64,000 nucleotides of DNA from Vulcanimicrobiota bacterium (GCA_050250895.1 JBFWNU010000005.1:480001-544000); one strand, 5' to 3'. Shown: positions 31,060-64,000, numbered from the stretch's first letter. Translations and numbers: made by a program. The notes: generated from the sequence alone by a model not told the origin.

Positions 31060-32943
31060 GTGCTCGGAGGGCTCGCGGCCCTCGGCCTCTTGGCGCGGCG
31101 CCAGGCTCTTGAGGCCCGCAATCACTCGGTCGAGATGGTGGCCGATCTGGCCGCCGCGGTCGATCTCGCTAGAGCCCGGCATGTCTCGCTGCCCGAAATG
31201 TTGGCCGAGTTCTCACGCCTGGGGATCGGTTCGGTTGCCGTCAACGAGTTGCATCTTGACGATCTGATCGACTCGGGGCAGGTGCTGGCCATGCGCGGTC
31301 TCGATCTCAGGCTGGCCATCGCCAATGGCGCCGTCGAGGCCCCACCGGGGTTTGAGCCCAATCCTACCTATTCTTACGTGGTCTTCTTTGGCCAACCGCA
31401 ACTGGCCCACGCTATCGCGAACTATCTCAAGCCGCTGATCGCAGACGAGGTCAAGCTCTATGGCGACTCGTTGCTGGAGACCGCGCTGGACCTGCGCACT
31501 CTCCGGGGTGAAGGCCTGGGATTTCCCCCCTCGTCGTTGGAGCCGGTCGAGGCCGCCGGGTTGCGGGTCTGGTTGAGGCCCGAGAACCGGGCCGCCATCA
31601 CGGCCCCCCAGGTCGAGGCGCTCTTCGACCACTTCGCCCAGGTCAAAAACGTGGAGGGGGTCATCTTCGGGGGCGGCCTCAACGAGGCCCTGGGCTACCC
31701 CGACGCCCTCGACTCTACCGCCGCTCAGCTCCGTCAGCGAGGCTGGAAGGTGGGCTATATCGAGCTTTCGGCGGCCCAACAACAGAAGGGCATCGAGACC
31801 CTGGTGCGCCAACTGCCGGACCTGACGGTGCGGTTGTTGGCCGTCTCGCCAGCTCATCAGGCCAAGCTCGACCCCTATCGGGTGGCCGCTATGTATAGTC
31901 TGGGAGGCCGCGAGCGCAATATCCGTCTGCTCTATCTGCGGCCCTATCCCGAGCCCGGCGGCGAGGCCGACAACAAAGAGCTGTTTCAACTGTTGGGGCA
32001 AGAGTTTCCGCCCCAGCGGCAAGCCAGCACCTTCGAGGTGCCCGAGCCTCCTCCGTTGATGTTGATTCTCTTGGTGGCCCTGGCAGCGGGCGCGGGCACC
32101 TGGCTGTTGCTGGGCGCCCTGCTCGAGCTGCCCGACTGGGTGGGCTGGGTCTTGCTGGCGGCGGCTCCTCTGGCCACCATGGCCTGTCAGGCCATTCACT
32201 TTGGCCAACTCTGGCGAACCCTGATGGCGCTGGGGATGGGCTGTGTCTTTCCCTTGCTGGGGGTCGTGGCCAATCTCGAATTGCTCGAGGACGTCTCCCG
32301 ACGCCAGGAACTGGGCGGTCGGCTGAAGGGATGCACTGCGCTGCTCTGGCGCACCTCGCTGGTCTCTTTAGCCGGAGCCCTGCTGGCCGCCTCGCTGCTC
32401 TACGAACCAACTTTCTGGCTGGGTCTGGACCGTTTTCGCGGGGTAAAGTTGCTCACGCTCGGAGTGCCCTTGCTGGCGGCTCTGGTGGTGCTGGTGGGCA
32501 AAGGCCGGCGCGCCCGCTTGCGGGCTCTGCTCGATAGCCCGCTCAAGGTCTGGCACCTGCTGGCGATGGGCGGGGGAGCCGTGTTGGGGGTGCTCTACCT
32601 GTTGCGCACCGGCAACGATTCGGCCGGTACCGCCACCGAATCCGAACGAGTCTTGCGCGTGGTGCTCGACCAGTTGTTGGGGGTGCGCCCGCGCTTCAAG
32701 GAGTTCTTGCTGGCACACCCGGCCATGGTCTTGACACCGGCCCTGGGCTGGCTGGGCATGCGCGATTTTCTGGCCCTGGGGGTCATGCTCGGCGCCGTGG
32801 GTCAAGTCGGCATGATCGACACCTTTGCTCATATCCACACGCCCCTGGTGGTATCGTTGGTCCGCAGCCTGCTGGGCCTCGTCCTGGGCTGGTTGCTGGG
32901 TCTGATCGGAGTGGTCGTAATCACTCGCTGGCAGAAGCGTTAG
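31060..32943 (+). CDS. DUF5693 family membrane protein
   Basis: ERNIRLLYLRP, FRGVKL, GVRPRFKEFLLAHP, DTFAHIHTPL motifs; the start may lie ~39 nt upstream (CTG 31021). Confidence 0.8.
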   Translation: MLGGLAALGLLARRQALEARNHSVEMVADLAAAVDLARARHVSLPEMLAEFSRLGIGSVAVNELHLDDLIDSGQVLAMRGLDLRLAIANGAVEAPPGFEPNPTYSYVVFFGQPQLAHAIANYLKPLIADEVKLYGDSLLETALDLRTLRGEGLGFPPSSLEPVEAAGLRVWLRPENRAAITAPQVEALFDHFAQVKNVEGVIFGGGLNEALGYPDALDSTAAQLRQRGWKVGYIELSAAQQQKGIETLVRQLPDLTVRLLAVSPAHQAKLDPYRVAAMYSLGGRERNIRLLYLRPYPEPGGEADNKELFQLLGQEFPPQRQASTFEVPEPPPLMLILLVALAAGAGTWLLLGALLELPDWVGWVLLAAAPLATMACQAIHFGQLWRTLMALGMGCVFPLLGVVANLELLEDVSRRQELGGRLKGCTALLWRTSLVSLAGALLAASLLYEPTFWLGLDRFRGVKLLTLGVPLLAALVVLVGKGRRARLRALLDSPLKVWHLLAMGGGAVLGVLYLLRTGNDSAGTATESERVLRVVLDQLLGVRPRFKEFLLAHPAMVLTPALGWLGMRDFLALGVMLGAVGQVGMIDTFAHIHTPLVVSLVRSLLGLVLGWLLGLIGVVVITRWQKR

Positions 32944-33118: not shown

Positions 33119-33637
33119 ATGGAGGAACTGAAAGACATTCGAGCCGGCGGCAATTTTCTCGAAAAGTTGATGCGCATGGTGCCCGGCTTCGGCGGTTATC
33201 TCGACCGCGAGCGGCGTCGCGACGCCGACAAGTTACAGCGCGAATTCCTGGCTAAATCGACCACCGAGATCAAGCGGCGAATCCAGGACATCGGCGAACA
33301 GATGCTGGCCAACGGAGATATGAGTCAGATGGCCAAGCTCGACGGTCTCACCAATCGCCTCGACCGCGTCACCGAACGTATTCGCCACGCGGCTCAGGGC
33401 TACGCAGGTTTCTTCGAAATCAACCAGGTCAACTCGGAAGAACTTGACCGTATCTACGAACACGACCTTTCCATGCATGTCGAGATCGACAACGTCAATC
33501 AGGCGCTCGACGCTTTCCAGACGGCTGTCGATTGCAACGACAATCCCGGCGCCCGGCTGGGTGACGTGCAAAGGTTGGTGAACGCGCTCGACGCCAAACT
33601 TAACGAGCGCGAAGCCATCGTGAAAGGAGTCTATTAG
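33119..33637 (+). CDS. Conserved hypothetical helical protein coupled to the SPFH gene
   Basis: VPGFGGYLDRERRRDADKLQRE, GYAGFF, ELDRIYEHD; RBS GGAGG; stop overlaps the next start. Confidence 0.75.
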   Translation: MEELKDIRAGGNFLEKLMRMVPGFGGYLDRERRRDADKLQREFLAKSTTEIKRRIQDIGEQMLANGDMSQMAKLDGLTNRLDRVTERIRHAAQGYAGFFEINQVNSEELDRIYEHDLSMHVEIDNVNQALDAFQTAVDCNDNPGARLGDVQRLVNALDAKLNEREAIVKGVY

Positions 33638-34839
33638 TGTTCGGTAAGTTGAAACAAGCAGTCACTGGTGGGACCAAGGGGATCATCGAGGTTATCGAGT
33701 GGATCGACTACCATCCGGACGCCATCGTCAAGAAGGTGCCCGAGCATGGCCCCGGCCAGATCAAGTTCGGCGCCAACCTGATCGTTCGCGAAACCCAGAC
33801 GGCTGTATTCTTCCGCGATGGCAAGGCCCTGGATACGTTTGGTCCGGGTCGTCACATCCTCTCCACCGCCAATCTTCCCGTCCTCCAGAAGGTGGTCGAG
33901 CACGCCACCGGTGGCCACAACCTGTTCACGGCCGAGGTCTACTACGTCAACCAGAGGATCTTCACCGACCTCAAATGGGGCACGCCCAACCCCCTCGATA
34001 TGAAAGACCCCGACCTGGGCTGGGTGCAATTGCGGGCTTTCGGTACCTTCTCGGTGCGCATCGATGACCCGATGCTGTTCGTCAACACCCTGGTGGGGGC
34101 ACAGAGCCTGTACACCACCCAGTCGTTGAACAACTTCCTCAAAGGCAGCATCCGCACCCACCTCAACGACCTGATCGGCACGACTTTCGAGTCGTATGCC
34201 AAGATCCGGTCCAATGTCGAAGAGATGTCGGCGGCCATGAAGATCAAGGTCCGCGACGACTTCGGCAAATACGGTATCGAGCTTCGCGACTTCTTCATTC
34301 AGGACGTTTCCGTCCCGGAAGAAATTCAAGAAGCTTTCCGGATGCGCGCCAAAATGGGAGCCCTCGGTCTTCAAGGTCCGCAGGCCTACACCCAGTTCCA
34401 GGCCGCCAACGCCATGCGCGACATGGCTCAAAACGAAGGAGGCGGCGGTCAGATGATGCAGATGGGCGCCGGCTTCGGAATGGGAATGATGTTCCCTCAA
34501 ATGATGGGTCAGGCCATGGCTCCCGGAATGATGCCCCAGCAGGGCTACGGTTATCCGCCCCAGGGCTATCCGCCGCAGCAGGGCTATCCCCCTCAGGGCT
34601 ACCCGCCGCAGCAGGGATATCCGCCCCAGGGTTATCCGCCGCAGCAGGGCTATCCGCCGCAGGGCCATCCCCAGCAGGGATACCCGCCTCAGGGGGCTCC
34701 CCAGGGCGGTCCACCTCCCCAGGGTGGTGGCGGTATGGATGTCCAGGCCAAAATCGCCAAGCTGCAAGAACTCAAAGAAATGGGAGTTCTCAGCGAGGAA
34801 GAGTTCCAACAGAAGGTTCAACTGCTACAAAGCCTTTAG
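33637..34839 (+). CDS. SPFH (band 7, YdjI-like) domain protein with GYPPQQ repeats and C-terminal SHOCT
   Basis: LIVRETQTAVF..DGK, FGPGRH, KWGTPNP, LRAFGTFS; AKLQELKEMGVLSEEEFQQK SHOCT motif. Confidence 0.88.
   Translation: MFGKLKQAVTGGTKGIIEVIEWIDYHPDAIVKKVPEHGPGQIKFGANLIVRETQTAVFFRDGKALDTFGPGRHILSTANLPVLQKVVEHATGGHNLFTAEVYYVNQRIFTDLKWGTPNPLDMKDPDLGWVQLRAFGTFSVRIDDPMLFVNTLVGAQSLYTTQSLNNFLKGSIRTHLNDLIGTTFESYAKIRSNVEEMSAAMKIKVRDDFGKYGIELRDFFIQDVSVPEEIQEAFRMRAKMGALGLQGPQAYTQFQAANAMRDMAQNEGGGGQMMQMGAGFGMGMMFPQMMGQAMAPGMMPQQGYGYPPQGYPPQQGYPPQGYPPQQGYPPQGYPPQQGYPPQGHPQQGYPPQGAPQGGPPPQGGGGMDVQAKIAKLQELKEMGVLSEEEFQQKVQLLQSL
34539..34692 (+). repeat. Coding tandem repeat of 15-18 nt units, (Q)QGYPP
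   Basis: Repeated CAGGG(C/A/T)TA(T/C)CC units encoding QGYPPQ. Confidence 0.85.
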
Positions 34840-39838: not shown

Positions 39839-39927
39839 TTCTCGAGCATACCCTGAAAGCGGCCTCGACAAGCCCGAAGAAGTGAAATTTTCTCAGGGCG
39901 CCATCCACCTCGGTCGCGAAGGAGGCG

Positions 39928-42900
39928 ATGGCTTGGGCACGAAACTTGCGGCCGCGAGAGGAGTTGTCTGTGAGTTTTACCCAGGTGCGAACGGGCTTTG
40001 CCGTGGCCCCGATTTTGGAGGAAACGGCCCATCGATATGGATTCTTCGGGGGATGGACCAGTGGAGGGCACTACCGCATCTCCCAGGACGGTTTGGCCGG
40101 GCTGGTTCTTTTCGGTCAGTCTCTGTCCTTCAAGCATTTTACCCAACGGTTCAGTCTGGCCAGCGAGCGCGATGGGGAACTCGAGTTCCCTTCGATGGTG
40201 GCCAGTTTCGACTCTTGGTGCCAGTGGCGCGACGAGTTTCGCGAGTTCTTCCAGATCCTGGCCGAAGAGAATCCCACCCGGTTGGGGCGCGACGCTCTCT
40301 ATCGCTGGGCTCGTCCGCGGACGGTCGACGCCCCCTTTTCCGAGGCCCTTGACCTGTCTCGGAGGTTCCTCGAGCGGACTTATCAAGACGATTTCATCGT
40401 GCGCGAGAAGAAGGAGATGGTGGTCGACTACCGCTCCTGCCAGGGCAACTATCTGGTCTCGGTCGACCGCGACGAGTACGGACCGCTGTGCGCGCTGCTC
40501 GATTGCTCTTCGCAAATCGCCTCGCATATCGCGGGTTTTAACGGATTCATTCTTCAAGGGGTGTTGGCTCACGTGCAGAGCTTCACCAACCCCGATTACC
40601 GCAAACGGCCGGTTCCGGTAGCGCGCTCGTTCAAGAACCTGCTGCGACGGTGGGCTCCCGACGGATTGACCCATATCTGCTTTTGTAACTCGGGCACCGA
40701 AAGCTGGGAGAAGGCCGTTTTGCTGGCGCAACACAAATTCCCCGACAAAGGCCCCAGGGTCGTCTGCTTCGAGGGCAGTTTCCACGGCCGCACGTTGCTG
40801 GCGCTCTTCTCCTCCTGGAATCCCTCCAAGCGGATCCCCTTCCAGCTCGAGGGCTTCGAGACTCCCTTTGTACCCTTCCCCGAAGACAAGGAGCCTCATC
40901 TCGACCGACCCGCCCCCGAAGGTTGGGCCGAGGCCTGGCACGGCGCCGCCGCCGAAGAGTGGCAGCCACCCGTCTACGACGACGAGTTGTTGGCCCGCGA
41001 AGTAGCCAGCCTGGTGGCCGTACGCGACCTGATCAAGACCGGTGACGCCTGCGCGGTCTCGGTAGAGCCGCTGCAGTGCGAAGGCGGAGACCGCTTTGCC
41101 ACCAAGCGATTCTTCCAGGCTCTGCGCCTGCTCACCGAGGCTTTCGGGGTCGGCCTGATCTTTGACGAGGTGCAGACCGGCTTCGGACTGGGCGGCACCC
41201 CGCTCTGGTCCGACATGTTCGAACTTCCCTCGCCCCCGGACTTTATCAATCTGGCCAAGAAGTGCCAGGTTGGCTGCGTGCTCTCGAGCATTCCCGACCC
41301 CGAGCCGACGGCGGCCCATGCCGCCTCGATGGCCCGAGGCTACTACAACGCCCTGGCGGTGGACCCGCCCGAACTCGAAAAGCTTGGCAAGGTGGTGGCC
41401 CAACAGCTTTGCAAGCTGACCGGCGACTACGAGATGGTCACCGCTCCCCGAGGGCGCGCCCTTTGCTTTGCCTTTGACCTGCCTGACGCGGACACGGCCA
41501 ATGCCTTTGTCAATCAGCGCTTCCACCGCGGCCACATGGTCTACATCGCGGGCGAGCGAACGATCCGATTTCGTTTGCAGCTGGCTACCCGACCGAAGGA
41601 CGTCGAGATCGCCTTCTCGGTCATTCGCGAGACCCTCGATTGGATCAAGACCCATGGGACCGAGGCCACCGCTCACGGCGATTACGCCTGGCAAGAACCG
41701 GTCCCGACCAGCCTCAAGCTGCCGGAAGGTCCCGACGATCTCGAGGGAGCCGACTGGGCCGGCATCCTGCGCCATTACGGCCAGCTCGACGGGGTGCAGC
41801 AGAAGGCCTTCGACCACGAGATCGGACCCCACGACCCGGTGGGCTGGTTCGGCACCGCCAACAAAGAAGGACGCATCACCTGGCTGACCTTCCTGCGCTA
41901 TCTGGCCGCGAAGCACGCTCCTGTGCTGGTGGGGCTCACGCCCGAAATGTGGGAGGAGTATCGCGAGCAGATCATGGAACTCGAGCACAGTATCTATGAG
42001 CCCGCCCGACAGGATTCCGAGGAGTTCTTGCGCGGCATTGTCGAGGCCGACCGCCAGCTCTGTTATCTGGCGCTCTCGCCGGAGGGTGAGGTGGCCGGCT
42101 ACTCGTTTTCGGCTCCCATCAAGAACTTCTCGCAGGTGCGGGGACCCCACGAGGATCCCGAGATGGGGCGGGGGACCACCCTCTATTCGGCCGATATCGG
42201 AGTCCACCGCGACTTTCGCGGGATGGGTCTTGGTCTGCGGCTCAAGCGCCGCCAGGTCCGAGAGGCGCGCGAGCAGGGCTTCTCGTTTATCCGCAGCCGG
42301 AACCGTCTCGACTCGACGGCCGCCATGATGCTGATCAATCAGGCCTTCGGCAGCCGTGAGCTGCGTCGCTATGAAAAGGACTACGGAGCCGATCAGGCCA
42401 CGTCGCTCTACTGGTCGCTGCCGCTGTCGATGGAGTATCACCCCACCATCGACTGGAGTGGCGGCGTGGAGGAGCCCGCCGGCGGCTTGCTCGACCCGGC
42501 CGCCTGGCAGGACTGGGATCTGGCCGCGGTCAACAAGAATTCGCTTTGCAACTGGTGGACCCCGAACATGGTCCGCCACATCGAGTGGCTGCGCGAGGTC
42601 AGCCCGCTGCCCCATCTCTATCTGGCCAGTGGCCGCGACGAAGCGGCCGACAAAGCGGTCAAGTGTCTGATTTACGCCCGCAAAGGGGCCAATCGCTGCA
42701 TCAGCTTCACGGGGGCCTATTGGGGGCACACCACCGCGACCGCTCGCAGTCTCTCGGACAGCCGCTATCTCGGCTATTTCCCCTGGGACCACATCGAGTA
42801 TCCGACCTGTCCCGACGATCCTTTCCTGGCTCCTGAGGGCGCCCTCAACGATGAGGAAGAGCGTCGTTTGCACCAGGTGGCCGAGCGACTCGAGAAGCCC

Positions 42901-43452
42901 GAAGAGGTGCTCGGAGTCTTCATCGAGCCCCTGCAAGAGCGCACCGGCGAGCGGGTTAGCGTGCGGTTCTTGCGGGCTCTTCGCAAGCTCTGCGATGAGC
43001 GCGACGTGCCGCTGGTGTTCAACGAGTCGGGCAGCTGGCTCTATCGCGGGTCGTCTGAGCTGTTCTTCTGCCAGGCAGCCGGGGTGATTCCCGATGCCCT
43101 GGTGTTTTTCGCCGGCGGCCAGGTGGGCCACGTGCTGGTCAATAAGAAATACTTCCTCGAGAAGCCGCTGATGCTGATCTCGACCTGGGACGGCGACGAG
43201 CTCTCGTGCTTGCGCCTGCGCGAGCAGGTGCGAATGGTGCAGGCCAGCCTCGACGAGGACTTTCTAGCCCACATCGACCGCCGGCTGGCCGAATACGGAC
43301 CCATCTACCGAGGCAGTGGCTATCTGCTTTTGCCTGACGCGCCCAGGTTGTCGATTGCCCACACCCTCGACATGGAGGACTATCTCATGATGCCCCCCCT
43401 CAACCGGTTGCGAGAGGGTTTTTCACAGCTCGAGGAGGAGTTGGAGCTATGA
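39928..43452 (+). CDS. Fusion: class III aminotransferase (lysine-6-aminotransferase-like) + GNAT acyltransferase + degenerate class III aminotransferase
   Basis: Domain 1: NSGTE, SFHGRT, EPLQCEGG, FDEVQTG, AKKCQVG. GNAT motif A: VHRDFRGMGLG. Domain 3: AYWGHT, EPLQE, FNESGS, FAGGQVG (no Lys), STWDG. Confidence 0.85.
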   Translation: MAWARNLRPREELSVSFTQVRTGFAVAPILEETAHRYGFFGGWTSGGHYRISQDGLAGLVLFGQSLSFKHFTQRFSLASERDGELEFPSMVASFDSWCQWRDEFREFFQILAEENPTRLGRDALYRWARPRTVDAPFSEALDLSRRFLERTYQDDFIVREKKEMVVDYRSCQGNYLVSVDRDEYGPLCALLDCSSQIASHIAGFNGFILQGVLAHVQSFTNPDYRKRPVPVARSFKNLLRRWAPDGLTHICFCNSGTESWEKAVLLAQHKFPDKGPRVVCFEGSFHGRTLLALFSSWNPSKRIPFQLEGFETPFVPFPEDKEPHLDRPAPEGWAEAWHGAAAEEWQPPVYDDELLAREVASLVAVRDLIKTGDACAVSVEPLQCEGGDRFATKRFFQALRLLTEAFGVGLIFDEVQTGFGLGGTPLWSDMFELPSPPDFINLAKKCQVGCVLSSIPDPEPTAAHAASMARGYYNALAVDPPELEKLGKVVAQQLCKLTGDYEMVTAPRGRALCFAFDLPDADTANAFVNQRFHRGHMVYIAGERTIRFRLQLATRPKDVEIAFSVIRETLDWIKTHGTEATAHGDYAWQEPVPTSLKLPEGPDDLEGADWAGILRHYGQLDGVQQKAFDHEIGPHDPVGWFGTANKEGRITWLTFLRYLAAKHAPVLVGLTPEMWEEYREQIMELEHSIYEPARQDSEEFLRGIVEADRQLCYLALSPEGEVAGYSFSAPIKNFSQVRGPHEDPEMGRGTTLYSADIGVHRDFRGMGLGLRLKRRQVREAREQGFSFIRSRNRLDSTAAMMLINQAFGSRELRRYEKDYGADQATSLYWSLPLSMEYHPTIDWSGGVEEPAGGLLDPAAWQDWDLAAVNKNSLCNWWTPNMVRHIEWLREVSPLPHLYLASGRDEAADKAVKCLIYARKGANRCISFTGAYWGHTTATARSLSDSRYLGYFPWDHIEYPTCPDDPFLAPEGALNDEEERRLHQVAERLEKPEEVLGVFIEPLQERTGERVSVRFLRALRKLCDERDVPLVFNESGSWLYRGSSELFFCQAAGVIPDALVFFAGGQVGHVLVNKKYFLEKPLMLISTWDGDELSCLRLREQVRMVQASLDEDFLAHIDRRLAEYGPIYRGSGYLLLPDAPRLSIAHTLDMEDYLMMPPLNRLREGFSQLEEELEL

Positions 43453-44927
43453 ACTATCGCGGACACTTTATCAACGGCGCCTGGAAGATCGTCCCGGGCA
43501 ACGCCTATGCCTCGGTCAATCCGACCACCGGAGCGCGCGTGCTCGAGGTGAGCTATGGCGACGGCAGCGAGGTAGCGGAGGCTGTCGAGGCTGCTCACCA
43601 GGCCTTTCTCGAGTGGCGTATGCTCGACAAGTCGGAGCGGGCCGCCTATCTCGAGCGCTTCGCCGACGCTCTCAAAGACCGCAGCGAGCCGCTGGCCCAG
43701 GCCATTACCGCCGAGATGGGCAAGACCATTCTCGAGGCCCGGGCCGAAGCCGCCGCCTGTGTGGCCAAGATCAGCATCACCCTGAGCGAGGGTCAGGCCT
43801 TAGTCGACCGCTTCGACCCTGAGGGCCTCGATGGCAGCTGCCATTTCATGCCGTTCGGGGTGATGGCGGTCATCGGTCCCTACAACTTTCCGGCTCACCT
43901 GGCTAACGGCCACATCATTCCGGCTCTGATGACCGGCAACACGGTGGTCTTCAAGCCCAGCAGCGTGACCCCGCTGGTGGGTCAGGTCTATGCCGAGGCC
44001 GCCGAAGCGGCCGGCTTCCCGCCCGGGGTCTTCAACCTGCTGCATATTCGCCGGGCCGTGGGCGATAAGCTGTTGACCCATCCGCTGGTGCGCGGAGTGC
44101 TGTTCACCGGCTCCTACGACGTGGGTCTGCACATCAAGCGGGTCACCCTGGAAGACCCCTGGAAGATTCTGGCTCTCGAGATGGGCGGTAAGAACTGTTC
44201 TATCGTGTGTGAGGATGCCCACCTCGAGCAGGCCCTGACCGAACTGGTCACAGGCGCCTATCTCACCACCGGGCAGCGTTGTACCGGCACGGCTCGGGTC
44301 ATCGTGCACAAGAGCCTGGTCTCGAAGCTGGAAGAGGGTCTGGCCCGGGCGGCTGGCCAGCTCAAAAGCGGCGACCCTCTGGACGCCGAAACCTTCATGG
44401 GACCGCTGGCCTCGGCCTCGGCCCTGCAGGGCTTCATGGCCTCGCAGGAGATGGCCAACAACGACCCGACCCTGGCTACTCTGGTGGCGGCCGAGAACCC
44501 GGCCCATTGCCTCACCAGCGCGGCCCTGCATCGGGTCGAACGCTATCGCCCTGACCATCCGTATCTGCGCGAAGAGGTCTTTGGTCCGGCCCTGACCATC
44601 GAGGCGGTGGCCGACACCGACGAGGCCATCGCCCGGGCGCTGGATACCGACTATGGCCTGTCGTTCTCGATCTTCACCCGCGAGCGCTCGACCTACGAAA
44701 AGGCCCTGCGCTCGGTGCCCTGCGGTATCGTCAACTGGAATCGCGCCACCAACGGGGCCAGCGGACGCCTGCCGTTCGGCGGGCTGGGCAAGTCGGGCAA
44801 CCACCGTCCGGCCGCCCTGTGGGCGCCCTACTACTGCACCTATCCCGTGGCCGAGCTGCGCAAGCCCTACGGCCAGGTCGACGAGAACCCGTGTCCCGGG
44901 TTTCCCAAGGAGGTCCTCCACCGATGA
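43449..44927 (+). CDS. Aldehyde dehydrogenase, N-succinylglutamate 5-semialdehyde dehydrogenase (AstD)-like
   Basis: GPYNFPAHLANGHIIPAL, FTGS, ALEMGGKN, GQRCT, EEVFGP and the AstD-type tail PFGGLGKSGNHRP...YCTYP. Confidence 0.85.
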   Translation: MNYRGHFINGAWKIVPGNAYASVNPTTGARVLEVSYGDGSEVAEAVEAAHQAFLEWRMLDKSERAAYLERFADALKDRSEPLAQAITAEMGKTILEARAEAAACVAKISITLSEGQALVDRFDPEGLDGSCHFMPFGVMAVIGPYNFPAHLANGHIIPALMTGNTVVFKPSSVTPLVGQVYAEAAEAAGFPPGVFNLLHIRRAVGDKLLTHPLVRGVLFTGSYDVGLHIKRVTLEDPWKILALEMGGKNCSIVCEDAHLEQALTELVTGAYLTTGQRCTGTARVIVHKSLVSKLEEGLARAAGQLKSGDPLDAETFMGPLASASALQGFMASQEMANNDPTLATLVAAENPAHCLTSAALHRVERYRPDHPYLREEVFGPALTIEAVADTDEAIARALDTDYGLSFSIFTRERSTYEKALRSVPCGIVNWNRATNGASGRLPFGGLGKSGNHRPAALWAPYYCTYPVAELRKPYGQVDENPCPGFPKEVLHR

Positions 44928-46314
44928 GTAAGATTTTCGCCAGCGTCCAAGAGGCAACCCATGACGTCAAGGATGGCTCGGTCATCATGTTCGGAGGCTT
45001 TGGCCTGTGTGGCATTCCCGAGAATCAGATCGACGAACTCTACCGTCGCGAGGTCAAAGGCCTCACCATCATCAGCAACAACTGCGGCAACCAGGGTCGG
45101 GGATTGGCCATCCTGTTGAAGCGCCACCAGATCGCCAAAGCGATCTGCAGCTATGTGGGTGGCAACCCCGACCTCGAGAAGCAGATCCTGGCCAAGGAGA
45201 TCGAGATCGAACTGAACCCTCAGGGTACCCTGGTGGAGCGCATGCGCGCCGCCGGGTCGGGGCTGCCAGCCTTTTTCACTCCCACCGGGGTGGGCACCAA
45301 AGTGGCCGAAGGCAAGCAGGTGCAGCGCTTTGGCGACCGAGACTACATTCTCGAGACCGCCCTGCCCGCCGACTTCGCCATGATTCGCGCCTGGAAGGCC
45401 GATAGCGAAGGCAACCTGGTCTTTCGCGAGTCGGCGCGCAACTTCAGCCCGCTGATGGCCATGGCCGCCCGCACTACCATCGTCGAGGCCGAGCACCTCG
45501 TCGAGGCCGGCGAACTGGGAGCCGACGAGATTCATTGCCCGGGCATCTTCGTGCAGCGGGTGTTCCAGGGCACCAACTACAAGAACCACATCGAGAAGAA
45601 GATGCTGGCCGGAGCCTCGTCTGACGACGGGGGAGAAGAGTCGGGAGTGGGTCTGACCCGGCGCCAGATCGCCTGGCGGGCCGCCCAGGAACTCGAGGCT
45701 GGAGCTTACGTCAACCTGGGGATCGGCGTGCCCACCCTGGTGGCCGACTATCTCGACGACAGCAAGAACATTCGCCTTCACTCCGAGAACGGCGTGCTCG
45801 GGGTCGGCCCTTATCCCACCGAAGAGCAGGTCAACTACTATCTCATTAACGCTGGCAAGGAGACCATCACCTTGCGTCCCGGCGGGTCGGTCTTCGACTC
45901 GTCGATGTCGTTTGCCATGATCCGGGGTGGTCATGTCGACTGGGCCATCCTGGGAGCGCTCGAGGTGTCGGCCAAAGGCGATCTGGCTAACTGGATGATT
46001 CCCGGCAAGAAGGTCAACGGCATGGGGGGCGCCATGGATCTGGCTGCCGGCGCGCGCAAGGTGATGGTCTTGACCACTCACAACGCCAAGAATGGCGACC
46101 CCAAGATCGTGGCCGAATGCAAGTTGCCCCTGACAGCCGCCGGAGTGGTCAACATGATCGTCACCGACCTGGCCGTGCTCGATGTCACCCCGGACGGCCT
46201 GGTCCTGCGAGAACTGGCCGAGGGAGTGACCGTCGACGACTTTCTGGCGCGCACCGGGGCGCCGGTGCTGGTGCCCGACAACGTGCCCCGGATCGCTACG
46301 CCCGAGGTGGTGGC

Positions 46315-46318
<4 letters not shown>
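44924..46318 (+). CDS. Fused class I CoA-transferase (alpha+beta, SCOT-like)
   Basis: GGFGLCGIPEN, PQGTLVERMRA, NLGIGVPT, SENG (catalytic Glu), GMGGAMDL; ATG 44924 overlaps the upstream stop. Confidence 0.92.
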
Positions 46319-47369
<1,051 letters not shown>

Positions 47370-47373
<4 letters not shown>

Positions 47374-48614
47374 AGTCGCCCTTCTTCTACACCTGGAGTG
47401 CCCAGTCGAAGGTCGAGCCCCTCGAGATTCTCTCGGGCCAGGGAGCCCACTTCGTCACCCCCGAGGGCTCCTGGCTCGACCTGGGGAGCCTGATCTATCA
47501 GGCCAACCTGGGCCATGGTCACCCGCGCATGCTCGCGGCCATCAAGCGCCAGGTCGACGAGCTGTGTCTGACTCTGCCCAACGCTGTCTATCCGGCCAAA
47601 CGAGAACTGGCCGAGCGTCTGCTCGAGCTGGCTCCTCCGGGCTTTGACCGAGTCTTCTTCACCCTGGGCGGAGCCGAGGCCAACGAGAACGCCATCAAGA
47701 TGGCCCGGGCCGTGACCGGTCGCCACAAGACGATCTCGCGCTATCGCTCCTATCACGGCGCCACCATGGGAGCCCTGTCGCTGTCGGGTGACTATCGCCG
47801 CCCGCCTTTCGAGCCGGCCATGACCGGGGCCGTCCATTGCCTCGACTGCTACTGCGACCGCTGCCCCTTCGGCCAGACCTATCCGCGGTGTAAGCTCGAG
47901 TGCGCCCAACACATCGGCCAGGTGCTCGAACTCGATGGCCCGGGGACCTTTGCGGCCGTCTTTCTCGAGCCGATCCCCGGGGCTAACGGCGTGCTGGTGC
48001 CTCCGCCCGGATACTGGTCGTCAATTCGCGAGGCTTGCACCGCCCACGGCACCCTGCTGGTGGCCGACGAAGTGCTCACCGGCTTTGGCCGCACCGGCCG
48101 CTGGTTCGGCATCGAGCATGAGGGAGTCATTCCCGACATGATTACCTGCGCCAAGGGTCTCACCGGCGGCTACGCCACCCTGGGCGCCGTGCTGGTCCAC
48201 GAGCGGGTCAGCCGGCATTTCGATGATCAGCCTCTGTTGGCCGGCCTGACCGGCTACTCTCACCCGCTCGCCTGTGCGGCCGCCCTCGAGGCCCTGCATA
48301 TCTATCACGACGAAGGCCTGATCGTGCGGGCCGCCGCCCTGGAAGAGCCGCTGCTGGCTCGCCTGGAGGAACTTCGCTCTCGCCATGCTCGCCTGCGCTT
48401 CGTGCGCGGCCGCGGTTTACTGGCGGCGCTCGAGTTCGAAGCTGATGCGGCCTATATGGAAGAGGTCCGCAGACGCCTGCTGGCCCGCCGGATCTACGTC
48501 CATGTGAAGGTGGCCACCCAGATGCTCGTGATCTCTCCGCCCCTGTGCATCGAGAAGAACGACCTGCTCGCCGGCCTCGAAGTGATCGACCAGGTGCTGA
48601 GCGAACTGAGCTAG
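47370..48614 (+). CDS. Class III (omega) aminotransferase
   Basis: NLGHGHP, GGAEANENA, SYHGAT, ADEVLTGFGRTG, CAKGLTGGY (PLP Lys), TGYSHP motifs. Confidence 0.92.
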
Positions 48615-48647: not shown

Positions 48648-49655
48648 ATGAGGATCCAGGCTGCATCACTGTATCGCGGTCCCGCCGACGGGCTGTCCCA
48701 ACCCGACCTGGCGGCCCAGCGTTGGCTCAAGCCAGCGGCCAGGGTGCTCCACGGCGTGATGGTCCGCCAACAAGTGAGCGGCCTCGACCACCTGCCCGAA
48801 GACGGCGCCCAACTGTTTTGCCCTACCCACCAGAGCGGCATCGATGCCGGTCTGATCATGGGCTTGAGCAATCGCGACATGCGCTTCATGGCCGCCCGCG
48901 AGCAGTTCAACGGCATGCAGGGACCGATCCTCACCAAGATGGGCGCTTTTCCCGTCGACCGGGCTCACCCCGGTCGCACCACCCTCAAGCATAGCGTGGA
49001 TGTGCTCAAAGACGGCAAAGCCCTGGTCATCTTTCCCGAGGGCGGCATTCCCAGCAATGGCGGCGACGGAAAGATCGGAGAGTTCAAGGAAGGCCCGGGC
49101 TGGATCGCCGTCCATGCCGGAGCCGAGTCGGTGGTGCCGATTACGATGCACGTCGGGGCTAACCAGGAGAGTCGCCCTCTGGCTCATCTGACCGGGGTGG
49201 CCGGTGCGGCCGGCCTGGTCGCCCTGGGATTGTGCGGCGCGGCCGGCGGCACGGCCGCCCAGGTCGCCACCGGCGTCATCGGCGGCGCACTGATCGGCGC
49301 TTTCACCGGCAGCCGCTTTGCCAAGCCCGACCCCAAGACCGCCTGGAACCCCTACCCGGGCTTCCAGCAGCGCACCCTCAACGGCCTCAAAGGTGCGGCG
49401 GCCGGGGCTGCTGCCGGAGCCGTCGCGGCCCTCATTCCCGGCGGGGCGGCCGTGGCCGCGGTGGGAGGCGGCCTGTCGAGTTACGGCCTGGCGCGCGACT
49501 TCATCGAACGTCCGGTGGCTAAAATCGAGATCGGTCAACCGCTCAAAGTGAGCGACTACGTGGCCAGCCACGGTAAGAAAGAGGCCGGCAACGCCCTGAT
49601 GGCCGACCTGCACACCCAGATGGCCGCCACCAAGGCCCGCCTCGTCACCCAGTGA
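48648..49655 (+). CDS. PlsC-like lysophospholipid acyltransferase with Gly/Ala-rich insertion
   Basis: THQSGID (HX4D), FMAAREQF, FPVDR, IFPEGG motifs. Confidence 0.85.
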   Translation: MRIQAASLYRGPADGLSQPDLAAQRWLKPAARVLHGVMVRQQVSGLDHLPEDGAQLFCPTHQSGIDAGLIMGLSNRDMRFMAAREQFNGMQGPILTKMGAFPVDRAHPGRTTLKHSVDVLKDGKALVIFPEGGIPSNGGDGKIGEFKEGPGWIAVHAGAESVVPITMHVGANQESRPLAHLTGVAGAAGLVALGLCGAAGGTAAQVATGVIGGALIGAFTGSRFAKPDPKTAWNPYPGFQQRTLNGLKGAAAGAAAGAVAALIPGGAAVAAVGGGLSSYGLARDFIERPVAKIEIGQPLKVSDYVASHGKKEAGNALMADLHTQMAATKARLVTQ

Positions 49656-50104
49656 CCCTGGTTCGCATCCCCAATCATTACCTATTGTTGGTCGTGCTCG
49701 ACCGACGTTCACCAGCCAACGACGCCAATCTTTACCAGCAGGCCGCGCCTCGGGGCCATCGTGGCCTGCTCGACTTCTTTCGTGGCTACGTCGAGGCGGG
49801 CCAACTCCAGTTGCTCGAGTTTCTCTGGGACGGGGTCTATCGCGTCGCGGCCCACCAGCAAGACCCGCCCGACGAACTTGAGCACCAGGGTTGGCTGGAA
49901 TGCCCTTCTGGCGAGTTGCTGATTGGCGATATCTCCTCGCTGGGCCAGGGCCTGACTCGGCTGGTAACGGTAGAGCCTGGTTGCTATCGGACCGGCTGGC
50001 TGGAGGATTGGGCAGAGCTTGAAAAACATTTCTGGCTGGATTCACCAGCCAGTTACCCGGCGGCCGATGGGCCTGATGTCACCGTCTGTTTGAGCCCGCG
50101 TTGA
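49652..50104 (+). CDS. Hypothetical protein
   Basis: GTG overlaps the PlsC stop; globular composition; no family recognised. Confidence 0.5.
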   Translation: MTLVRIPNHYLLLVVLDRRSPANDANLYQQAAPRGHRGLLDFFRGYVEAGQLQLLEFLWDGVYRVAAHQQDPPDELEHQGWLECPSGELLIGDISSLGQGLTRLVTVEPGCYRTGWLEDWAELEKHFWLDSPASYPAADGPDVTVCLSPR

Positions 50105-50161: not shown

Positions 50162-52135
50162 GTGGGTCCAGATGAAGTCTTTCTGGAAATCGAGCGACAC
50201 AATCTAGAGGTCGCCGCTGTCGCTTTGCTGATGCTGATGGCTCTGTTCGGAGTCCATCATTTCTTCTTCAAGCATCTCAAGCCGCGGCATCCCATGCTCA
50301 AGCTGCTGCAAGAACGGCTGCGCTATCTGACCACCATCTTCGTCTTCTTGGTGCCCCTGCGCTGGGCCGCCGGCCAGATTCAAGAGATGGTGACGATCCT
50401 CGACGAGTTGCATGTCGGCGTGATCTTCGTGCTCGTCCTGCTGGGTCTTGAGAGCCTCTATTCCCTGCTATTTATAGAACCTGACGGTACGCCCCGACTG
50501 ACGCCCACGGTGCATTTCGGCCTGGCCAGCGCTCTTTACGGCATTCCCGGAGTCGTGTTTCTCGCGCTCATCTCGGGCTTTCCGCTGTTCGACCGGGCGA
50601 TGCTCTATGCCCTGGGGTCCATTTTCACGGTCTATCTGTGCATGCACTTGCTGTATGCTTTTGTTTTCAAGTGGGTGACCTGGACTCATCCCCTGGCCCT
50701 GGCCCTCAAGGCTCGCCTGCGCTTCTGGGCTTATGTGACCGTGCTGGGCCTGGTTTGCTACTTTGCGGTGACCCGCTACACATTCATCCCGGTCACCGGT
50801 AACATGGTCGACAACCTGGCTCTGTGCCTATGGATCCTGCTGGTCTGCATGGTCGCCGAGAGCATTCTGGCCGGGGTCTTCGATTTCTATTTCCCGGTGG
50901 CCAAGAAGTCCGAGATTCCGACCCTGTTTCGCGATCTCACCCGGGCGTTGGTTTATATCGGCCTGGCCACCTTCTTTGTCGGTTTCGTGCTCAAACGCGA
51001 CCTCAACTCGCTGCTGGTGGGATCGGCCGTCATCACCGTCTCGATCGGTTTCGCCCTGCAAGAGACGCTGGGCAACTTCTTTGCCGGGTTGGCGCTGCGA
51101 TTGTCACAGCCGTATACGCTCGGTGACTACGTCGAGGTGGCCAACTTCATCGGCCGCGTCGAGAAGATCGACTGGCGCCAGACGGCCATTCTGACCAATA
51201 ACGGCGACTACGTGCTGATGCCCAACTCGATGCTGGCCAAAGAAGCCATCAGCAACCACTCGTCCCCGACCCGGTTGCACGCCCGCTACATCGAGGTGGG
51301 GACCCACTACCGGCATCCCCCGAACGTGATCAAGAAGGCCATGCTCGAAGCCGCCGCCTCGGTTCCCGATGTGCTACCCGATCCCCGGCCCGAACTCTAC
51401 ATTATGGATTTTTCCGATTCGGCGATCACCTACCGCCTGCGCTACTGGCTGGCTGACTTCGGCGAGCGGTTCCGGGTGGATACCCAGGTGAGGGCCGCGA
51501 TTTGGTATCGCTTCAAGCGTGACGGCATCGAGATCCCGTTCCCTATCCGGACGCTCGTCAAAGAGCCTCAGGTGAGCCGAGACGAACTCCTCGAAGAGGT
51601 GAGGGGCTTTCTCGAGACGGTCGACTTTCTCAACGCCCTCGACGAGGAGGCGCTCACCACCCTGTCGCACCGGGCTCGATTTCAACTCTTTGCAGGCGGC
51701 GAGAAGATCTGCGTTCAGGGTCAGATGGGAGACTCTTTCTACATCATCAAAAGCGGCAAAGTGCAGGTCGCCGCGGCCGACGAGGAGACAGGCGAGGTGT
51801 TCCTGTGCGCCGAGATCGCGCCCGGCAACTACTTCGGCGAGATGGCTCTGTTGACGGGCGAGCCGCGCTCGGCCACCGTCACGGCTCTGGTCGACTCTGA
51901 ACTTTTGACCCTGAGCAAGGACGACCTGCGGTCCATCATCGTAGGAAACATCGAGGTGGAGAAGATCATCTCGAACGTGCTGGCCCAGCGCCAACTGCGC
52001 ACGGCCAAAGCCAAGGAAGAAGCCGAGGAGGAGAGAATGGCCCGGGCCAACGCCAGTGGCCGGGGCCAGGGCGCACGGCTCGACCAGCTGTCCGAGCAAT
52101 TCCTGCGCAAAATCCAGGAATTCTTCAGCTATTGA
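50162..52135 (+). CDS. Small-conductance mechanosensitive channel (MscS family) with C-terminal cyclic-nucleotide-binding domain
   Basis: IGFALQETLGNFFAG, IDWRQT, PNS, IEIPFPIR; cNMP domain QGQMGDSFYII...FGEMALLTGEPRSATV. Confidence 0.92.
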   Translation: MGPDEVFLEIERHNLEVAAVALLMLMALFGVHHFFFKHLKPRHPMLKLLQERLRYLTTIFVFLVPLRWAAGQIQEMVTILDELHVGVIFVLVLLGLESLYSLLFIEPDGTPRLTPTVHFGLASALYGIPGVVFLALISGFPLFDRAMLYALGSIFTVYLCMHLLYAFVFKWVTWTHPLALALKARLRFWAYVTVLGLVCYFAVTRYTFIPVTGNMVDNLALCLWILLVCMVAESILAGVFDFYFPVAKKSEIPTLFRDLTRALVYIGLATFFVGFVLKRDLNSLLVGSAVITVSIGFALQETLGNFFAGLALRLSQPYTLGDYVEVANFIGRVEKIDWRQTAILTNNGDYVLMPNSMLAKEAISNHSSPTRLHARYIEVGTHYRHPPNVIKKAMLEAAASVPDVLPDPRPELYIMDFSDSAITYRLRYWLADFGERFRVDTQVRAAIWYRFKRDGIEIPFPIRTLVKEPQVSRDELLEEVRGFLETVDFLNALDEEALTTLSHRARFQLFAGGEKICVQGQMGDSFYIIKSGKVQVAAADEETGEVFLCAEIAPGNYFGEMALLTGEPRSATVTALVDSELLTLSKDDLRSIIVGNIEVEKIISNVLAQRQLRTAKAKEEAEEERMARANASGRGQGARLDQLSEQFLRKIQEFFSY

Positions 52136-63853: not shown

Positions 63854-64000
63854 ATGTCTCGAATTGGCAAGAAACCGATCCCCGTTCCCAAAGGGGTGGA
63901 TATCAAAGTCGCAGAGGGCTTGGTCACGGTGAAGGGTCCCAAGGGTCAACTGACCCAGCACGTGGATCCCCTGCTCGACATCCAGGTCAATGACGGCGTT
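63854..64000 (+). CDS. rplF: 50S ribosomal protein L6 (3'-truncated by window)
   Basis: ATG 63854 reads [15 protein letters not shown]...VKGPKGQL. Confidence 0.95.

Follow-up and report, generated by a model that had tools for sequence, protein, structure and literature searches.

How does a class III aminotransferase work when a single chain carries two such domains and neither has kept all of its catalytic elements? The question is raised by a gene at 39928..43452 on the + strand of a 64,000-nucleotide stretch of DNA from a Vulcanimicrobiota bacterium (GCA_050250895.1 JBFWNU010000005.1:480001-544000), which as a whole is called the window. Class III aminotransferases are symmetric dimers with two shared active sites, and a Thr loop of each subunit is supplied in trans to the phosphate site of its partner. 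The gene product, P0001, has 1174 residues and comprises, in this order, an N-terminal domain (N-domain), a first aminotransferase domain (AT1), a linker, a GNAT acyltransferase domain and a second aminotransferase domain (AT2). With a probability of about 0.72 for the explanation as a whole, we regard P0001 as a conserved enzyme in which AT1 and AT2 form a pseudo-dimer with one active site, and which takes part in an oxidation scheme for acyl-protected amines. The gene and the parts of its product are located as follows.

39918..39925, + strand: GAAGGAGG, a Shine-Dalgarno-like stretch read from the sequence, 2 nt 5' of the ATG at 39928
39928..43452, + strand: whole gene, open for 1174 aa (open reading frame list and translation)
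39988..40332, + strand: N-domain, alpha/beta, residues ~21-135
40348..41679, + strand: AT1, class III aminotransferase domain that appears catalytically equipped, residues 141-584 (Pfam, NCBIfam, PDB sequence and structure matches)
41164..41166, + strand: codon of D413, the Asp of DEVQ and partner of the pyridine nitrogen, which faces the Asp of the PDB entry 2cin
41257..41259, + strand: codon of K444, the predicted Schiff-base lysine
41284..41343, + strand: AT1 loop 453-472, SSIPDPEPTAAHAASMARGY, in place of the canonical Thr loop (a deletion relative to NSTWGG)
41680..41916, + strand: linker with a five-helix segment, residues 585-663 (secondary structure of the models)
41917..42429, + strand: GNAT acyltransferase domain, residues ~664-834 (PF00583 and fold match)
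42463..43449, + strand: AT2, shortened and catalytically degenerate class III domain, residues 846-1174 (Aminotran_3 and PDB match)
43180..43194, + strand: AT2 Thr loop S1085-T1086-W1087-D1088-G1089, predicted to complete the phosphate site of AT1 for pyridoxal 5'-phosphate (PLP)

The six motifs on which a first-pass annotation of this DNA had based the idea of two complementary half sites are all found in the translation. In AT1 these are FDEVQTG (residues 412-418, nucleotides 41161-41181), LAKKCQVG (residues 442-449, 41251-41274) and, with no STWGG-type loop in this domain, PEPTAAHAAS (residues 458-467, 41299-41328). AT2 reads FNESGSW (residues 1031-1037, 43018-43038), FFAGGQVG without a Lys (residues 1060-1067, 43105-43128) and ISTWDG (residues 1084-1089, 43177-43194).

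A Pfam scan of the whole protein assigns Aminotran_3 (PF00202) with 169.6 bits against a cut-off of 30.5, the best stretch being 159-454, and Acetyltransf_1 (PF00583) at residues 680-799 with 27.8 bits against 20.7. The first 150 residues have no Pfam match. All NCBIfam equivalog cut-offs are missed by the 1174-residue protein, no curated family covers it, and database records give its homologues only generic names. A search of 5.8 billion proteins returned 188 matches, the best 120 all with E <1e-137; these 120 and the query form alignment A1 with 121 rows, to which all counts out of 121 refer.

When residues 151-600 are scanned alone, PF00202 scores 128.7 bits. The best PDB sequence match of AT1 is the lysine aminotransferase of M. 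tuberculosis (2jjf/2cin, E ~5e-22, phmmer), and on the level of structure the model (residues 142-574) aligns to 2cin_A over 397 residues with 27% identity (VIA Z 35.7, root-mean-square deviation (rmsd) 2.3); Foldseek gives a template modelling score of 0.80 against lysine aminotransferase. Membership in this enzyme family does not follow, as the top NCBIfam model of AT1, LAT_fam (TIGR03251), stays at 159.4 bits below its equivalog cut-off of 520.8; the astC model (TIGR03246) reaches 93.6 bits against a cut-off of 609.95. In the phmmer alignment, which ends at chain residue 302, LAKKC of AT1 stands opposite FGKKT of 2cin. K444 faces the Lys of GKKT, D413 and Q416 face the Asp and the Gln of DEVQ, and E385 faces the Glu of GEGG; counted along the alignment, these are chain residues 300, 271, 274 and 243. 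Where lysine aminotransferase has NSTWGG, AT1 is deleted in the phmmer alignment and its loop reads PDPEPTAAHAAS.

This pattern is a property of the family. K444 is a Lys in 120 of the 121 sequences and Q416 is kept in as many, while D413, E414, E385, H286, G287, R288, R547 and R549 are identical in all of them. The loop after the Lys reads PDPxPTxAHxAS and never TWGG; T461 occurs in only 74 sequences, H464 in 113 and S467 in 110. The AT1 loop of the Bacteriovoracaceae has no Thr at all, T461 being absent as well. By its sequence, AT1 is classed as a class III domain with the catalytic Lys, Asp and Gln and without a Thr loop of its own. It keeps the Glu 'switch' E385 and R547, a Glu and Arg pair which we take to be typical of 2-oxoglutarate-dependent omega-aminotransferases, and is therefore expected to convert a terminal amine to an aldehyde.

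AT2 presents the opposite picture. Residues 851-1174 scanned alone match Aminotran_3 with 48.9 bits (cut-off 30.5, E 5e-13), and the match covers only positions 89-308 of the 403 in the profile. Compared to a normal class III chain, AT2 lacks about 85 residues at its start and has a reduced C-terminal small domain. The nearest PDB sequence is the acetylornithine aminotransferase of T. maritima, 2e54 (E 1.1e-11). In this alignment, N1032 faces the Asp of DEVQ and the Lys of 2e54 falls into a 3-residue deletion of AT2, and STWDGD stands opposite TTFGGN such that T1086 faces the Thr. Conservation in A1 follows the same division: the Asp column holds N (45), V (35), S (22), I (9) and F (4), position 1063 at the Lys site is a Gly in 119 sequences, and in none of the columns 1058-1070 does K rank among the five commonest residues. 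S1085, T1086, W1087 and G1089, on the other hand, are present in 119 sequences and D1088 in 117, the two missing rows being gaps. Residue by residue, AT2 reads as a class III domain that has its Thr loop and lacks the catalytic Lys and Asp. It is predicted to be well folded, with a per-residue confidence (predicted local distance difference test, pLDDT) of ~93-98 in the full-length AlphaFold2 model, except for one 10-residue block at 74.

AT2 has not been met as a gene of its own. When the AT2 region was compared to shorter proteins, 20 matches were obtained but no stand-alone AT2-like gene on a long contig. The 13 strong matches (E <=1e-22) are AT2-like and are read as fragments, since most of them sit on contigs of ~1-3 kb; a further one sits on a contig of 7 kb, and for another the contig is not recorded. 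The other 7 are ordinary aminotransferases of 389-390 aa with E ~1e-6.

The architecture Aminotran_3-GNAT-Aminotran_3, for which the first-pass annotation had suggested a search, is that of a conserved family, with 121 aligned homologues from several phyla. Its members form at least 120 sequence clusters and are found in the phylum of the window (Vulcanimicrobiota/'Xenobia' by the source names), in Myxococcota and in Bacteriovoracaceae, with full-length homologues at 43-95% identity and more distant relatives in other phyla. The split between Lys and Thr loop is also present in the translations of the Myxococcota loci and in the most distant ones, those of the Bacteriovoracaceae (28-32% identity), whose AT2 still reads ISTWDGDE. 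As the pattern holds in 121 homologues from several phyla, we do not regard it as a chance event. Four architecture classes can be told apart: N-domain and core (about 1170 aa), aldehyde dehydrogenase, N-domain and core (about 1700-1780 aa), aldehyde dehydrogenase and core (about 1520-1600 aa), and the core alone (about 1000-1090 aa). Within the phylum of the window the family is distributed patchily, with hits at E <=1e-50 in 11 of 201 sampled genomes, the source genome counted. The closest genomic homologue (L002, G088:C32:4240-7749), 67% identical and from the same genus, has one in-frame TAA inside the match, which could be a sequencing error, the mark of a pseudogene, or a match that overruns the true stop.

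Do the two domains face each other as the subunits of a class III dimer do? The full-length AlphaFold2 model, computed with A1, has a mean pLDDT of 94.7 and a predicted template modelling score (pTM) of 0.94, with disorder confined to residues 1-20; how all the domains are placed relative to each other is therefore predicted with confidence. In addition, AT1 (140-585), AT2 (845-1174) and PLP were modelled as a complex, the domains being given as separate chains. The complex scores 0.94 in all three runs, the best of three controls 0.00; among solved complexes, 116 of 157 reach the score mark used, among mismatched pairs 2 of 215. The runs agree in at least 98% of the contacts, and the pLDDT of the partner is 90. 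The dimer-like interface between the two domains, without which the first-pass annotation could not have been upheld, is thus present in the model. It is predicted to be symmetric and to use equivalent segments from both domains, namely the N-terminal arm, the SGxE helix, the FHGR/HTTA loop, the Lys region and the (former) Thr loop. AT1 253-258 and 443-444, i.e., the SGTES loop and K444, and AT2 1076-1087 belong to it.

A less model-dependent line of support comes from conservation at this interface. Of the 46 AT2 residues conserved at 90% or more, 23 lie at the interface, compared to 54 of the 284 others (odds ratio 4.3, p=1.8e-5). The corresponding counts for AT1 are 22 of 94 and 56 of 352 (p=0.09), with conservation spread over its whole active site. 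We also compared the full 1174-residue model to ~48,000 PDB representatives as a test of the arrangement, since a two-domain chain such as GcvP might have aligned over both halves, and discarded this approach, the list being filled by single class III chains that match AT1.

Reading P0001 as a pseudo-heterodimer with one site is supported by the reciprocal conservation, by the model with its pTM of 0.94, and by the AT1:AT2 interface with the conservation on its AT2 side. The proposal that the two domains have lost reciprocal functions and share one composite site has accordingly gained support from the family, the rigid model and the predicted interface, all of it computational. The more specific expectation, a contact between STWDG and the PLP phosphate, fared less clearly: AT2 1076-1087 and K444 both lie in the predicted interface, and the phosphate contact itself is deduced from it.

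Altogether, AT1 and AT2, most likely of the same chain, would pair as the subunits of an ordinary class III dimer do. PLP would be held by AT1 through K444, D413, Q416, the SGTES loop and FHGR, and the phosphate pocket would be closed by T1086 in the STWDG loop of the dead AT2 domain. In the mirror site, composed of the AT2 pocket and the AT1 loop, Lys, Asp and Thr would have been lost such that only one of the two symmetry-related sites survives; we infer one PLP per chain.

Between the two halves lies the GNAT domain. Residues 585-845 folded alone (pLDDT 88.2) give a linker with a five-helix segment followed by a complete GNAT (~664-834), and PF00583 reaches 29.9 bits against the cut-off of 20.7 on the domain scan. 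The closest folds by VIA are 5isv_A (Z 20.4, rmsd 3.9, 154 residues aligned) and 4kvm_E (Z 20.2, rmsd 1.8, 151 aligned). GNATs bind the pyrophosphate of acyl-coenzyme A (acyl-CoA) with the motif Q/R-x-x-G-x-G/A. Here, the acyl-CoA motif reads RGMGLG (765-770), with G769 invariant and G767 conserved at 90% or more in A1; Q/R-x-x-G-x-G is found in 5 of 6 sequences compared across phyla, and since the exception (L014) has an Ala at the first Gly, Q/R-x-x-G/A-x-G in 6 of 6. As the fold is complete and the motif is kept, the modelled GNAT is probably catalytic. Sequence and profile searches of the PDB give only generic GNAT matches (best 4h89, 7.5e-05), and the structural neighbours are the N-alpha-acetyltransferases RimI, Naa10 and Ard1 at Z ~20. 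With many GNATs within 3 Z units, the acceptor cannot be read from the fold neighbours. The complete fold, the acyl-CoA motif and the fusion to a dehydrogenase in relatives make it plausible that the GNAT is tethered for substrate channelling, as had been suggested at first.

The N-domain in front of AT1 (residues ~21-135), which the first-pass annotation had left unexplained, is well folded in the model (pLDDT >90 from residue 21 on, residues 1-20 predicted disordered). It has no Pfam match and no usable Atlas match, and its PDB matches are only noise at E >=0.5. Among 1.84 billion representatives, four match: the full-length members P0039 and P0030 and two proteins of 145 and 113 aa. The N-domain is an optional module specific to the family, its presence varying with the architecture class. 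Some Myxococcota-type proteins have it after the fused aldehyde dehydrogenase and ahead of AT1, and others lack it. It might serve the dehydrogenase as a module for docking or as an adaptor.

What may the enzyme be used for? The gene is the first of a five-gene operon (39928-48614, + strand), in which four successive start and stop codons overlap by 4 nt (ATGA at 43449, 44924 and 46315, TTGA at 47370); the five genes should therefore be tightly coupled in translation. The downstream genes are the following.

43449..44927, + strand: aldehyde dehydrogenase, nearest to AstD (PF00171, 377.5 bits); its ATG overlaps the upstream TGA
44924..46318, + strand: fused A+B 3-oxoacid/acetate-type CoA-transferase (PF01144, 386.6 bits), probable ATG start at 44924
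46315..47373, + strand: autoproteolytic acyltransferase/hydrolase of the C45 family (NF040521, 151.4 bits against a cut-off of 85; PF03417), probable ATG start
47370..48614, + strand: second, conventional full-length class III aminotransferase (PF00202, 264.7 bits, profile positions 11-403 of 403)

The longest open reading frames of the CoA-transferase and C45 genes begin at GTG 44819 and ATG 46117, starts that are probably too far upstream. The dehydrogenase scores 415.9 bits with PRK09457 (cut-off 514), 394.2 with TIGR03240 (cut-off 579.3) and 229 with succinate-semialdehyde dehydrogenase. In the CoA-transferase, TIGR02428 and TIGR02429 are both above their cut-offs; the best NCBIfam model of the second aminotransferase, PRK06062, is below its own.

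The operon partners are conserved across three phyla. In the Myxococcota, the aldehyde dehydrogenase is fused to the N-terminus of the family protein in all three loci, and the dehydrogenase of the window is 41-45% identical to the fused domain. The order C45, aminotransferase, CoA-transferase A and B is the same in Myxococcota and Bacteriovoracaceae. All 12 related loci examined contain a CoA-transferase, and 6 of 7 loci from the phylum of the window have a dehydrogenase next to the family gene.

Some neighbours of the module were noted in passing. Directly upstream of the family gene, both Bacteriovoracaceae loci (L015:7884-8930, L017:7979-8980) have a Ddl-family ATP-grasp gene, with a 4-nt overlap in L017; this may be a housekeeping ddl or the sign of a different substrate there. 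In a Myxococcota locus (L011:12977-15061), the module is followed by a protein of 694 aa with M20 peptidase and dimerisation domains. The M20 family includes N-acyl-amino-acid deacylases, and the protein may be an alternative deprotecting enzyme. In the window itself, a gene for a PlsC-type acyltransferase (48648-49655) and an open reading frame of 150 aa without a family match occupy 48648-50104, beginning 33 nt past the operon. The PlsC-type gene was considered as a part of the module, in the sense of an ornithine-lipid-like product, and rejected: no homologue of it was found in the five Myxococcota and Bacteriovoracaceae loci.

Concerning the pathway, we infer both the reaction order and the logic of acyl protection. 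Most likely, the GNAT would act first and N-acylate the same substrate at its other amino group. As in the arginine succinyltransferase (AST) pathway, this would keep the amino-aldehyde from forming a ring. AT1 would then convert the terminal amine to an aldehyde, and the AstD-like dehydrogenase would oxidise it. The C45 enzyme may remove or transfer the acyl group, the second aminotransferase would act on the freed amine, and the CoA-transferase might either recharge acyl-CoA or activate the oxo-acid (3-oxoacid) product. Catabolism of an acyl-protected diamino compound is the likely role of the operon. Our guess for the substrate is a lysine-like C6 diamino acid, beta-lysine included, based on the likeness to lysine aminotransferase (LAT) and on the 3-oxoacid CoA-transferase. 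For beta-lysine, which is a candidate in the assembly-line reading put forward below with reserve, the route might lead via N-acyl-beta-lysine and 3-aminoadipate to 3-oxoadipate, or it might be the old Pseudomonas one. The latter includes the orphan activities N6-acetyl-beta-lysine transaminase and 4-acetamidobutyryl-CoA deacetylase; a literature search for this old pathway found nothing. A KamA-family radical SAM gene on contig 11 (178 bits, cut-off 199.2) was followed as a lead to beta-lysine and dropped as no evidence, being unlinked and common in bacteria.

Several observations weigh against this explanation and have to be set beside it. As the modelling tool itself warns, a complex of homologous halves can score high by resembling solved class III homodimers, and therefore the complex score shows likeness, not binding. 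The predicted contact of T1086 with the phosphate is read from the interface lists and the alignments. AT1:AT2 is the one pair that was modelled, and the Thr at AT1 position 461 is found in the 74 sequences mentioned above. On the side of the pathway, the equivalog cut-offs of LAT, AstC and AstD are all missed. No dehydrogenase was found within about 9 kb in the two Bacteriovoracaceae loci, nor in L095, and in three further loci of the window's own phylum (L090, L091, L094) the C45 and second aminotransferase genes are not adjacent. Finally, a set of residues around the vestigial site is conserved at 90% or more, namely R150, E160, K161, K162, D167, H464, S467 and R470 of AT1 and E1000, E1033, R1040 and Q1065 of AT2.

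The last point deserves attention. As these polar residues are so well conserved, the vestigial site has not simply decayed; their function may be limited to stabilising the interface, or the pocket may have acquired another role. In the latter case, which is compatible with the pseudo-dimer and which we regard as possible though rather unlikely, the AT2 pocket and the AT1 loop would bind a ligand other than PLP, for instance an effector or the acyl or CoA moiety of the substrate, or would form a conduit between GNAT and AT1. H464, S467 and R470, the four AT2 residues and the conserved segment REKK..V.D at the N-terminus of AT1 speak for such a function, and in a canonical dimer they would presumably face the second site. 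The same conservation could, however, simply serve to stabilise a PLP-free fold and the interface. An extension of this idea, which we put forward with still more reserve, is a self-contained assembly line of aldehyde dehydrogenase (fused or coupled), aminotransferase, GNAT and pseudo-aminotransferase: the degenerate site, converted to a conserved pocket or conduit without PLP, would hand the N-acylated intermediate over from the GNAT to the single PLP site, and the operon would encode the catabolism of a lysine-like diamino acid to which no genes are assigned so far.

A domain-swapped assembly would leave the chemistry of the composite site unchanged. Here, AT1 of one chain would pair with AT2 of another in a head-to-tail homodimer, giving two composite sites, one per chain. 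The complex model, with the domains as separate chains, does not tell pairing within a chain from pairing between chains, and as aldehyde dehydrogenases are oligomeric enzymes, their fusion to relatives of P0001 makes higher assemblies likely. The single-chain model nevertheless implies, by its pTM of 0.94, that the insert of linker and GNAT (~260 residues) spans the distance within one chain, and we hold the swap to be improbable.

A conventional homodimer, in which AT1 pairs with AT1 of a second chain to form two sites without a trans Thr and AT2 is a decayed scaffold or linker, is the least probable alternative: homodimers or tetramers are the normal state of class III enzymes, AT1 alone is a complete fold by its match to 2cin_A, and both T461 and the choice of modelled pairs leave room for it, but the TWGG loop is missing from AT1 in all sequences examined and T461 from the Bacteriovoracaceae, a mere scaffold would neither keep STWDG in 117-119 of 121 sequences nor concentrate its conserved residues at the interface to AT1, and AT2 is confidently placed in a rigid full-length model and scores 0.94 with AT1 where the controls score 0.00.

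Under the preferred reading, a one-site pseudo-dimer of AT1 and AT2, the enzyme can be compared to known systems. The lysine 6-aminotransferase Rv3290c (2cin, 2jjf), together with the acetylornithine/GABA (gamma-aminobutyrate) subgroup of class III, shares with AT1 the fold, the catalytic Lys, Asp and Gln, FHGR, the Glu of GEGG and the C-terminal Arg. In contrast, AT1 is far below the LAT cut-off, has no NSTWGG loop to supply in trans, and shares its chain with a GNAT and a second, dead domain. Known enzymes of the lysine 6-aminotransferase type are homodimers of one domain type; here, a chain of 1174 aa is found.

With respect to architecture, the nearest precedent is the P-protein of glycine decarboxylase (GLDC/GcvP), a pseudo-heterodimer with one PLP site, which is not of the same family. 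It is a single chain of more than 1000 aa or, in some prokaryotes, an alpha-beta heterodimer, with both halves of fold type I, and has the active-site lysine in one half only, the N-terminal half carrying a Gln there (PMC7259800). GcvP differs from P0001 in being a decarboxylase outside class III, without a domain between the halves and with the active half at the C-terminus. In P0001 the active half is N-terminal, a whole GNAT is inserted between the halves, and often, in the family, a third enzyme is fused in front. No GcvP chain occurs among the PDB sequence matches listed and the 50 VIA rows listed, which is a weak test as these lists are filled by class III chains. A full-text literature search found no description of a tandem or pseudo-dimeric class III aminotransferase or of an aminotransferase-GNAT fusion.

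The proposed pathway as a whole resembles AST (AstA, AstC, AstD), with N-acylation from an acyl-CoA, 2-oxoglutarate-dependent omega-transamination, oxidation of an N-acyl amino semialdehyde, and a dehydrogenase nearest to AstD. It differs in its generic GNAT (PF00583; up to an E of 1, Pfam lists no AstA family for P0001), in the fusion of its enzymes, and in the CoA-transferase, the C45 enzyme and the second aminotransferase, which are not part of AST. The Puu pathway of E. coli, which proceeds via gamma-glutamyl putrescine, also protects one amine, oxidises the other end to the acid, deprotects, and transaminates the freed omega-amino acid. It relies on ATP-dependent gamma-glutamylation and an oxidase, and homology to the present operon exists only via the superfamilies of class III aminotransferases and aldehyde dehydrogenases.

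If the one-site reading is true, a symmetric PLP enzyme has become an asymmetric machine with a single site, its dimer written into one chain by reciprocal loss of cis and trans elements. A 'dead' duplicate could then stay under strong selection by supplying one loop and an interface. The fusions with GNAT and aldehyde dehydrogenase and the coupled operon would define an uncharacterised pathway of acyl-protected amine oxidation, which may give genes to orphan activities, and single-chain transaminases with one site may serve as scaffolds in biocatalysis.

Further genes of the window are unrelated to the aminotransferase-GNAT gene. Upstream, a DUF5693 protein is encoded at 31060-32943 (426.6 bits) and an SPFH/Band-7 protein with a C-terminal SHOCT domain at 33637-34839. 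Downstream, an MscS-type channel fused to a cyclic-nucleotide-binding domain is found at 50162-52135. From 52444 to the end at 64000, the guanine-cytosine content falls from ~0.66 to ~0.58-0.60 and the AT skew is positive. A foreign island was considered for this drop and rejected, the region being the str/S10/spc cluster (S12, S7, EF-G, EF-Tu, L3, L4, L2, S3, L5); it contains the operons of ribosomal proteins and of EF-G/EF-Tu, and the shift is therefore that of core genes with high expression.

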